Positions 55,501 to 58,500 of a DNA stretch of 64,000 bases are shown in pieces. Within the stretch, counting starts at the first letter, position 1. Each line of letters opens with the position of its first letter. Made by a program: the position numbers. The stretch lies in the NCBI RefSeq assembly GCF_058153355.1, contig NZ_CM177019.1, one strand, 5' to 3'.

Positions 55501-58500
55501 GATATCGCCACGGGCGTTCGTGAATCCGCGCGTTTCTATGTGGAACTGCACAAGCTGGGCGTCAATATTCAGTGCTTTGATGTCGGCGGCGGTCTGGGTG
55601 TGGACTATGAAGGTACTCGTTCGCAGTCCGACTGTTCAGTGAATTACGGCCTCAATGAATACGCCAACAACATCATTTGGGCGATTGGCGATGCGTGTGA
55701 AGAAAATGGTCTGCCGCATCCGACAGTAATCACCGAATCAGGTCGTGCGGTGACTGCGCATCACACCGTGCTGGTGTCGAATATCATCGGCGTGGAACGT
55801 AACGAATACACGGTGCCGACCGCGCCAGCAGAAGACGCACCGCGCGCGCTGCAAAGCATGTGGGAAACCTGGCAGGAGATGCACGAACCGGGAACTCGCC
55901 GTTCTCTGCGTGAATGGTTACACGACAGCCAGATGGATCTGCACGACATTCATATCGGCTATTCTTCAGGCACTTACAACCTGCAAGAACGCGCGTGGGC
56001 TGAGCAGCTTTATCTGAGCATGTGTCACGAAGTGCAAAAGCAGCTGGATCCGCAAAACCGCGCACATCGCCCGATTATCGACGAATTGCAGGAACGTATG
56101 GCGGACAAAATGTACGTCAACTTCTCGCTGTTCCAGTCGATGCCGGACGCATGGGGGATCGACCAGTTGTTCCCGGTTTTGCCGCTGGAAGGGCTGAATC
56201 AAGTTCCGGAGCGGCGCGCCGTGCTGCTGGATATTACCTGTGACTCTGACGGTGCCATCGACCACTATATTGATGGTGATGGTATTGCCACAACAATGCC
56301 TATGCCGGAGTACGATCCAGAGAATCCGCCGATGCTCGGTTTCTTTATGGTCGGCGCATATCAGGAGATCCTCGGTAACATGCACAACCTGTTTGGTGAT
56401 ACCGAAGCGGTTGATGTGTTCGTCTTCCCTGACGGCAGCGTAGAAGTGGAACTGTCTGACGAAGGCGATACCGTGGCGGACATGCTGCAATATGTACAGC
56501 TCGATCCGAAAACGCTGTTAACCCAGTTCCGTGATCAAGTGAAGAAAACCGATCTTGATGCTGAACTGCAACAACAGTTCCTGGAAGAGTTCGAGGCAGG
56601 TTTGTACGGTTATACCTATCTTGAAGATGAATAATTAAGATTATTCCGCTATCGGGTCGATTTATTTACGTAAATCGGCCCGCTTTCTTTTTATATATTC
56701 TTAAAAATAATTTAGCTGCTTTCCTTATTGAATAATCTCCCTACAATCGCTGCATTAATTAAATGCAGAGGGAACGGTTATGAAAAAATGGAAAGTACGT
56801 AGCGCGTTGGTGGCATTAGTCGTGCTGCTGGCCGGTTGTTCCAGTAATGCGCAGTATAATAGCAGTGCATCGGGCAATGTCGGCACCGCCTGGGGTGGGG
56901 ATGTGCACTCAACGGTTCAGGGCGTATCTGCTGAACGAGCCTGGCGCGATCCGGCAGAGATGATCGTTATTAGTTATTCGACTAATGTTCCTTCCGGCTA
57001 CGACCGCGTTTATAGCATTCGTATTAACGAACTTGAATATGCTATTCGCGATGGTAATTTTAATTCTCTACCTATTACGCGGGTTTATAATTCATCAGGT
57101 AAAGAACTACGCTATATAGTCCATGCCAGAGTAGGAATGAATTACCAATTATATGTCCGCAATTACAGTCGTAACACCAACTACGAGATCGTTGCGACAG
57201 TTGATGGCCTGGATGTTCTCAATGGTAAACAAGGTTCCCTGAATAACAACGGCTATATTGTGAATGCCGGGGATTCGTTGGCGATTAAAGGATTCCGCAA
57301 AGATAAACATACCGAAGCGGCTTTTCAGTTCGCCAACGTTGCTGATTCCTACGCAGCCAATTCGGCGCAAGGCGATGTGCGTAATACCGGTGTAATCGGC
57401 TTTGCCGCCTTTGAATTACAAGGCCCGGCGCAAAACGCGCTGCCACCGTGCTCTGGACAAGCGTTTCCGGCGGACAACAATGGCTATGCGCCGCCACCGT
57501 GTCGGAAATAGTAACCTCGCTTGATGCCTCGCCCATTTAAGGCGATAATTAGCACAAAATTGTGTTTCGCAAATCCAACCCTTCCTCGTCGGGCCTAACG
57601 ACGCGGAAGGGTTTTTTTATATCGACTTTGTAATAGGAGTCCACCCATGAGCACCTTAGGTCATCAATACGATAACTCACTGGTTTCCAACGCCTTTGGT
57701 TTTTTACGCCTGCCGATGAACTTCCAGCCGTATGACAGCGATGCTGACTGGGTAATTACCGGCGTGCCGTTCGATATGGCCACTTCTGGTCGTGCGGGTG
57801 GACGCCACGGTCCAGCGGCGATCCGTCAGGTTTCGACGAATCTGGCCTGGGAACACAACCGCTTCCCGTGGAATTTCGACATGCGCGAGCGTCTGAACGT
57901 GGTGGACTGCGGCGATCTGGTGTATGCCTTCGGCGATGCTCGTGAGATGAGCGAGAAGCTGCAGGCGCATGCCGAAAAGCTGCTGGCTGCCGGTAAGCGT
58001 ATGCTCTCCTTCGGTGGTGACCACTTTGTTACCCTGCCGCTGCTGCGTGCTCATGCGAAGCATTTCGGCAAAATGGCGCTGGTACACTTTGACGCCCACA
58101 CCGATACCTATGCGAACGGTTGTGAATTTGACCACGGCACCATGTTCTATACCGCGCCGAAAGAAGGTCTGATCGACCCGAATCACTCCGTACAGATTGG
58201 TATTCGTACCGAGTTTGATAAAGACAACGGCTTTACCGTACTGGACGCCTGCCAGGTGAACGATCGCAGCGTGGATGACGTTATCGCCCAGGTGAAACAG
58301 ATTGTAGGTGATATGCCAGTTTACCTGACCTTTGATATCGACTGCCTGGATCCTGCTTTCGCGCCGGGCACCGGTACGCCGGTGATTGGCGGCCTGACCT
58401 CCGATCGCGCCATTAAACTGGTACGCGGCCTGAAAGATCTCAACATCGTTGGGATGGACGTAGTGGAAGTGGCTCCGGCATACGATCAGTCGGAAATCAC

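Follow-up and report, generated by a model that had tools for sequence, protein, structure and literature searches.

A predicted lipoprotein gene between speA and speB of Escherichia coli is very probably ancestral, and its absence from K-12 appears to be the derived state

A gene for a predicted lipoprotein of 243 amino acids, here called X, lies between speA and speB in a stretch of 64,000 nucleotides of Escherichia coli DNA (contig NZ_CM177019.1 of NCBI RefSeq assembly GCF_058153355.1), which is referred to as the window and whose positions are used throughout unless another locus is named. A first-pass annotation of this DNA regarded X as an insertion, an accessory gene placed inside the polyamine biosynthesis cluster, and so gave the event the wrong direction. 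Since X occupies the same site across genera, its synonymous divergence (dS) matches that of its flanks, and its deficit in G+C content at third codon positions (GC3) is shared by its orthologs, X is very probably an ancestral gene, inherited vertically at the speA–speB site since before the present genera of Enterobacteriaceae diverged, and the gene-less state of K-12 appears to be the derived one.

X is 732 bp long (56780..57511, plus strand), begins with ATG and was found by open reading frame (ORF) calling exactly where the first-pass annotation had placed it; it corresponds to the RefSeq hypothetical protein WP_000758925.1. The ribosome-binding site that the same annotation ascribed to X is also present, a GAGGG Shine-Dalgarno sequence read at 56768..56772 on the plus strand, 7 nt 5' of the ATG. 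Orthologs in other genera are 62–76% identical to X in amino-acid sequence, and the ratio of nonsynonymous to synonymous divergence (dN/dS) of X is 0.05–0.09, compared with about 0.01 for speA and speB. Because of this identity across genera and the low dN/dS, X is a real gene and not a chance ORF, and it is clearly under purifying selection.

All Escherichia species and clades that were sampled have X at this site, as do at least eight other genera. X is directly 3' of speA in the Salmonella, Klebsiella and Citrobacter loci, the order being speA–X–speB in Klebsiella and Citrobacter and speA–X in Salmonella. A scan of one genome per species recovered the order speA–X–speB in E. whittamii, two cryptic Escherichia clades, several Citrobacter, Kluyvera and K. 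spallanzanii, and likewise in Intestinirhabdus, Phytobacter, Kosakonia, Entomohabitans and an Enterobacter sp. In E. albertii, X is directly upstream of speB in a locus that is cut at the contig end.

Within E. coli, X varies from strain to strain, as had been supposed. In a sample of 5426 complete E. coli genomes, the whole segment is present in 3550, and nearly all of the others match just its last ~77 bp; with the X ORF alone as the query, X is present in 3556 genomes. The K-12 speA–spacer–speB junction matches 1865 of the 5426 genomes end to end at 98.8–100% identity. There are thus two haplotypes, one occupied by X (~65%) and one empty (~34%), together with a handful of disrupted loci. 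The occupied haplotype is carried by O157:H7, O104:H4 and Nissle 1917, and the empty one by the K-12-type genome L-form0, strain JB41 (source given as "laboratory") and strain B-DolR. Across all 1865 genomes the empty allele is one nearly invariant haplotype. The first-pass annotation had named conservation of X at this position in most E. coli, K-12 included, together with average composition, as the result that would tell against an insertion; X is kept at this position in most E. coli, and it is absent from K-12 and lies below the average in composition.

In some lineages of E. coli and Salmonella, copies of X are often frameshifted or truncated, as in P0030 (174 amino acids, 448 member sequences), P0051, P0032 and P0025, and X therefore decays repeatedly, besides its outright loss in the K-12 type. 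As a third of E. coli do without X and frameshifted copies are frequent in some lineages, X is dispensable. The abundance of truncated variants such as P0030 in some lineages also weighs against a uniform picture of conservation, as it implies that the selection acting on X is not universal. In strain N10 (locus L003, 3248-4434), a copy of the insertion sequence (IS) IS1 truncates X, and the DNA 5' of IS1 is unrelated (actS, tRNA-Gly and ygeQ), which indicates that this locus underwent an IS-mediated rearrangement.

The window itself comes from a rare, divergent lineage of E. coli. Its speB is about 96% identical to that of nearly all of the 5425 other genomes having speB, and only 4 genomes reach at least 99% identity; over the speA–speB segment the closest is strain 2013C-4282, which is 99.9% identical and has the same order speA–X–speB in its RefSeq annotation. 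X of the window diverges from other E. coli to the same degree as speB (~4%), and since speB shows equal divergence, the 4% divergence of X is not special.

When the window is compared with O104 or O157, the dS of X is 0.16–0.17, and those of speA and speB are 0.21–0.22 and 0.18, respectively. The base composition of the locus had been described as noticeably AT-rich, which holds in direction and less in degree: the 1012-bp region between speA and speB has 46.4% GC against 52.5% for the whole window, so that it lies below the window average only moderately, at about the 6th percentile among windows of the same size. The X ORF has 48.9% GC and a GC3 of 0.467, as against 0.605 for speA and 0.642 for speB, and the 145-bp spacer between speA and X has 33.8% GC. 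Orthologs in Salmonella, Klebsiella and Citrobacter have the same GC3 deficit, even where the neighbours have a GC3 of 0.74. Because the same offset is seen in these three genera, the low GC3 is best read from the sequences as an intrinsic property of X and not as the mark of a recent arrival.

These data bear directly on the possibility that X is an accessory gene that entered some E. coli recently by horizontal transfer, so that the K-12 arrangement would be the original one. Such an insertion would account for the absence of X from K-12 and from 1865 of the 5426 genomes and for GC and GC3 values below those of the neighbours, and the different cargo held by the speA–speB interval across enterobacteria implies that DNA has entered this site more than once. 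However, all Escherichia sampled and no fewer than eight other genera have X at this site, X and its flanks are equal in dS, the GC3 deficit of X is common to orthologs whose neighbours reach a GC3 of 0.74, and all the empty genomes carry one near-invariant haplotype. The locus contains neither mobility genes nor transfer RNA (tRNA) genes nor direct repeats. The first-pass annotation had likewise seen no mobility gene and no flanking repeat, and ORF calls, RefSeq annotation and repeat search agree on this point: the ORF calls and the RefSeq annotation of the near-identical strain contain no transposase or integrase ORF, and the repeat search around X detected no terminal inverted repeats and no target-site duplication, only short imperfect matches at chance level. 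X also differs from a mobile islet in that it is not absent from outgroups. A recent insertion is therefore largely refuted already, and we regard it as extremely improbable.

If X is ancestral, the K-12 allele needs an explanation of its own. As the first-pass annotation stated, speA and speB are nearly adjacent in K-12, being 137 bp apart in a K-12-type genome. This 137-bp spacer is colinear with the 135-bp spacer between X and speB; over the last 77 bp the two do not differ, and over the first 60 bp identity is only ~55%, the divergent 60-bp patch lying at 3941-4000 of the K-12-type locus L002 and corresponding to 57512-57570 of the window. The K-12 haplotype lacks X, the terminator-like hairpin that follows speA in the window, and the promoter region of X. 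The patch nevertheless keeps boxes like those at −35 and −10 of a promoter (TTGAAT-17-GATAAT). In local alignments evaluated by shuffling, it matches the spacer upstream of speB in another enterobacterial lineage (L094) with a z-score of 10.5 and the occupied allele of E. coli with a z-score of 2.8. When the 3' end of K-12 speA was checked for an imported tract, it differed by just ~2% from the occupied allele.

The simplest account of the K-12 allele is an internal deletion of X within E. coli, with the 60-bp difference as secondary noise. It agrees with the colinearity and nearly equal length of the two spacers (137 versus 135 bp), with the ~2% divergence of the speA 3' end, and with the failure to find a donor sequence for the patch. 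However, the ~45% mismatch is restricted to 60 bp with sharp edges, between flanks that differ by 0–2%, and is far above the point divergence within the species; the patch retains its −35 and −10 boxes and is closer to the versions of other lineages than to the occupied version of E. coli; and there are no intermediates among the 1865 empty genomes. A simple deletion thus seems a possible, rather doubtful account. Judged from these alignments, a replacement would fit the K-12 allele better than a simple recent deletion: a single recombination with a foreign or ancient X-less allele would have produced the empty haplotype, which would then have spread clonally, by recombination, or both. Against replacement, no donor of the 60-bp patch was found in the occupied allele, the window or all the loci fetched, and a deletion combined with local scrambling of the patch might instead have produced the empty allele.

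The speA–speB interval has received other DNA as well. A PHP-domain gene lies between speA and speB in one lineage (L093, 2447-3346), a sugar-utilisation island is directly upstream of speB in three loci (L094-L096, 1-3323), and in Salmonella X is followed by a sugar-utilisation island (L004/L005, 6886-12732). In Entomohabitans, the interval contains an extra gene in addition to X, and in another locus (L097, 3311-3500) it is an empty spacer of 190 bp. DNA has entered this slot on repeated occasions; among its occupants, X is the oldest and the most widespread.

The neighbours of X and the signals around them delimit the predicted transcription units. The upstream gene, speA (54658..56634, plus strand), encodes the biosynthetic arginine decarboxylase, and the downstream gene, speB (57647..58567, plus strand), encodes agmatinase; both were identified by ORF calling and RefSeq annotation, that of speA being taken from strain 2013C-4282. 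The speA orthologs of the Salmonella, Klebsiella and Citrobacter loci match the Pfam families Orn_Arg_deC_N, Arg_decarb_HB and Arg_decarbox_C. A terminator-like hairpin with a T-rich tail, found by a terminator scan as 13 pairs followed by CTTTCTTTTT, lies directly 3' of the speA stop codon (56653..56692, plus strand). Its position is kept in all genera that carry X, with compensatory changes in the stem, and it is missing from the empty allele of K-12.

Between this hairpin and X, a −10-like box, TACAAT (56742..56747, plus strand), marks a candidate promoter of X. Its position is conserved across genera, where it appears as TACAAT, TACACT, TACTAT or TACCAT. A perfect 7-5-7 palindrome, CTGCATT-AATTA-AATGCAG, can be read without regard to strand at 56750..56768. 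It falls 3' of the −10-like box and before the ribosome-binding site of X, where it overlaps the transcription start predicted for X and the 5' untranslated region (UTR). It is conserved within Escherichia only, other genera being different there, and may serve as an operator or as a hairpin of the 5' UTR. A likeness to NsrR-type operators was considered and dropped, as the spacing of the half-sites is off by 2 nt and the palindrome is not conserved outside Escherichia.

Downstream of X, a promoter scan detected a promoter-like site, TTGATG-17-GATAAT, upstream of speB (57521..57549, plus strand; 9/12 matches), whose boxes occupy the same position in all genera compared and in the K-12 allele, where the −35 box is TTGAAT. 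The repeat search found within the speB leader an inverted repeat that forms a hairpin, AACCCTTCCTCGTCG / CGACGCGGAAGGGTT, followed by a run of 7 T (57577..57618, plus strand). This hairpin is identical in K-12 and almost invariant in 13 enterobacterial lineages with fully diverged flanks, and its outermost pair shows a compensatory swap. Together, the promoter-like site, the hairpin with its T run and the speB ribosome-binding site make up a leader module of ~110 bp that precedes speB in all 13 lineages, whatever lies upstream. The terminator scan did not report the speB-leader hairpin, so that its reading as a terminator rests on the stem, the T run and conservation, and an Rfam scan of 56500-57750 gave no match, this hairpin included. 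As judged from these features, the hairpin probably terminates transcripts of X, and those of speA in K-12. The placement of a terminator-like hairpin between a promoter-like site and the start codon suggests that speB may be subject to attenuation.

These signals lead to a plausible scheme in which X would form a single-gene transcription unit of its own, insulated by the hairpin after speA on one side and by the speB-leader hairpin on the other. The speA transcript would end at its own conserved hairpin, X would be expressed from a weak promoter of its own with a good ribosome-binding site, and the X transcripts would probably end at the conserved hairpin in the speB leader. Weighing against this scheme, no sigma-70 promoter upstream of X passed the scan and the TACAAT box has no good −35 box, and transcription of X might instead rely on read-through from speA or on a different sigma factor.

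The protein has the features that the first-pass annotation listed: a signal peptide, a lipobox, a mature part rich in Asn, Ser and Tyr (10.3%, 9.0% and 6.3%, respectively) and the C-terminus PPPCRK. The signal peptide is encoded by codons 1–19 (56780-56836, plus strand) and the predicted lipidated residue, Cys20, by 56837-56839 (plus strand). The N-terminus, MKKWKVRSALVALVVLLAGC/MKKWKVRSALVALVVLLAG-C20 followed by SS, consists of a positive n-region, a hydrophobic core and the lipobox L-A-G-C, in agreement with the sequence criterion for a bacterial lipoprotein, which is a signal peptide ending in [LVI][ASTVI][GAS]C with a conserved Cys. Cys20 is invariant in the 43 homologs of family alignment A2. 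The lipobox is present in 225 of 246 diverse full-length family members, and none of these 225 has Asp at +2. Asp at position +2 is the inner-membrane retention signal of lipoproteins in Enterobacteriaceae, an established rule; X has Ser at +2 and so lacks this signal. The pre-lipoprotein would be exported by Sec and lipid-modified on Cys20 by Lgt, LspA and Lnt, and since residue +2 is Ser and not Asp, the Lol system would pass X to the outer membrane. The lipidation, outer-membrane location, transcription boundaries and biochemical role of X are all given here as sequence-based predictions.

The AlphaFold2 model of X (mean predicted local distance difference test score, pLDDT, 82; predicted template modelling score, pTM, 0.79) is all-beta over residues 35–213, with a disordered tether at residues 21–33 and a less confident tail. 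In this arrangement, a 13-residue tether would hold an all-beta domain of ~180 residues, most probably on the periplasmic side. The 43 sequences of A2 share the motifs LGTxWGE, YEIVATVDGLDVLNG, GFRK, AAFxF, YAAN and GVIGxAxFEL and the tail AFPAD...GYAPPP, which in X contains AFPAD and GYAPPPCRK. In the aligned enteric members, the tail has two Cys residues (Cys222 and Cys241 in X) at positions from which a disulfide could form. The tail would pack near the N-terminal module, which is consistent with the existence of circular permutants in the family. A highly conserved, long and well-ordered loop in the model, D142-G-L-D145-V-L-N-G-K...G-Y, is likely to be the functional surface of X.

On the basis of this model, we tentatively propose a non-catalytic role for X, that of a module that binds an envelope ligand or acts as a scaffold for it, with the acidic loop D142-G-L-D145-V-L-N-G-K at its centre. 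Two observations count against this proposal: the invariant E136, D142 and R173 and the nearly invariant D145 would fit an enzyme too, and homologs on viral contigs lack a signal peptide, so that the ligand of the domain need not be borne by the envelope. X might accordingly be an enzyme with a substrate in the envelope, such as one that modifies glycans or peptides. Residues that are invariant or nearly so are spread across the domain (W38, R53, N128, E136, D142, D145, R173, K174 and N202), purifying selection on X is strong and the family is very large, all of which would suit an enzyme; however, the searches made revealed no sequence or fold similarity to any enzyme family, and catalysis appears unlikely.

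The family of X is large. When 1.84 billion representatives were searched with a profile and clusters were counted at 50% identity, 4199 clusters were obtained at E<=1e-3 and 3267 at E<=1e-10, and the named matches are from alpha-, beta- and gammaproteobacteria. Some of the long members are high in G+C and rich in Pro and Ala. The motif VDGxDV is present in 239 of 246 full-length members. Three of the 246 (P0249, P0260 and P0269) are circularly permuted: the VDGxDV beta domain comes first and is followed by the LGTxYGE module, and the AFPAE..YAPPPP tail is still last. These circular permutants suggest that the domain consists of two separable modules with termini close in space. Permuted homologs without a signal peptide are also encoded on two viral contigs from IMG/VR of 236 and 239 kb (L101, 6001-6837, and L103, 5929-6801). 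On both of these contigs, which are of jumbo-phage size, a nearby ORF of 118 amino acids resembles a CheY-type receiver by eye. A scan of 2.9 million viral contigs gave just 5 loci, and for this reason the family of X is not a phage family.

The first-pass annotation called the lipoprotein unknown, and this description stands: X carries a lipoprotein signal, and no Pfam or NCBIfam family covers its mature domain. Pfam contains no family for X and gave only noise (E>0.01) for 43 members and 10 long members, and the NCBIfam matches are restricted to the signal peptide and far below the curated cut-offs. PADLOC gave no match, the best PHROGs match had a nonsignificant E-value of 0.01, no PDB chain showed a significant sequence or fold match, and a fold search of BFVD returned only unnamed or uncharacterised viral proteins. 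A PEGA-like domain, suggested by a 'V.VDG' motif, was considered and set aside for want of support from Pfam. A literature search by accessions and by speA/speB and lipoprotein terms returned nothing specific to X. On balance we think it somewhat more likely than not that X is the E. coli member of a large, undescribed domain family that consists mostly of proteobacterial lipoproteins, includes permuted and viral members and has no counterpart in Pfam (2025), NCBIfam (2026) or PDB (2026); the topology of the domain may be that of a new kind of beta-sandwich bearing a conserved acidic loop, and the domain may have been overlooked because the K-12 lineage lost X. A second, smaller possibility is that the empty site of K-12 may be an imported foreign allele and not a deletion.

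The link of the family to speA and speB is confined to Enterobacteriaceae; elsewhere its members are found in unrelated contexts. In Providencia a family member adjoins a gene recognised by eye as metJ, in Variovorax and other Comamonadaceae a member is inside the his operon between hisD and hisC, and in Proteus, Serratia, Gilliamella, Neisseria, Acinetobacter and others the contexts are varied. Among 80 loci of many genera, no conserved partner gene recurs besides the enterobacterial speA/speB and the Variovorax his operon. At one Variovorax locus (L010, 6001-7205), the family member is followed by an ORF of 122 amino acids with a weak Rap1a-like Pfam match, which does not recur elsewhere. 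Acinetobacter sichuanensis carries two tandem copies (L084, 5025-6762). Citrobacter sp. 18056 has a 63%-identical copy in another context that does not adjoin speA (L020/L021, 5971-6732). The match, its identity and the neighbour families are the same in a record labelled Chryseobacterium sp. 18061 as in Citrobacter sp. 18056, which suggests a mislabelled or contaminated assembly.

The enterobacterial context raises the question of whether X is tied to polyamine metabolism, either as an envelope partner of arginine decarboxylase or in the binding or sensing of agmatine or putrescine, and is kept by co-expression with speA and speB. Older literature places the biosynthetic arginine decarboxylase in the cell envelope. 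The order speA–X–speB is kept in many enterobacterial genera, speA, X and speB share one strand, and the speB leader is where transcripts of X probably end, all of which would be compatible with such a role. However, outside Enterobacteriaceae the family has no association with speA/speB, speA has its own conserved terminator-like hairpin before X, the pathway operates without X in K-12 and a third of E. coli, and unrelated genes occupy the same slot in other genera. A role of X in polyamine metabolism thus appears highly improbable.

The speA–speB arrangement of K-12 would accordingly be read as derived for E. coli and not as its reference state. A conserved, predicted envelope lipoprotein that is invisible to work on K-12 is encoded by two thirds of complete E. 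coli genomes, among them O157:H7, O104:H4 and Nissle, and also by Salmonella and several species of Citrobacter and Klebsiella. The family to which X belongs is large, under purifying selection and unannotated in the libraries tested, and it is a reasonable target for structure determination and deletion phenotypes. The locus is also a small example of a terminator-insulated spacer between two core genes whose cargo differs by genus. The finding overturns nothing: it is ordinary variation in gene content with the laboratory strain as the odd one out, together with a "domain of unknown function".

The predicted all-beta fold of X is shared by small beta-sandwich binding domains such as Ig-like, MATH/TRAF, MSP, the DUF1425/YcfL-type lipoprotein 3o0l and PCuAC. 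These domains are only 2–18% identical to X, cover part of the ~180-residue domain and share no family motifs with it, so that the resemblance is one of architecture and not evidence of homology. With the lipoproteins sorted by the Lol system, such as Lpp, Pal, LpoB and YcfL, X has in common the signal with the lipobox L-A-G-C, the invariant Cys, a residue other than Asp at +2 and, in the model, a short disordered tether before the globular domain. It differs from them in that its globular domain has no detectable sequence relation to a named family and in that its lipidation and location are predicted. At the level of the locus, the speA–speB interval resembles genomic islets and integration hot-spots in holding different cargo in different enterobacteria, whereas X has no integrase, repeats or tRNA gene, has a dS equal to that of the flanks and is conserved in position across genera. 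The closest comparison is with the speA–speB arrangement of K-12, which agrees with the window in gene order, strand, the speB ribosome-binding site and the last 77 bp of the spacer with its hairpin. The window, in contrast, has a terminator-like hairpin after speA and a 732-bp gene with its own expression signals, whereas K-12 has neither and carries a diverged 60-bp promoter patch.

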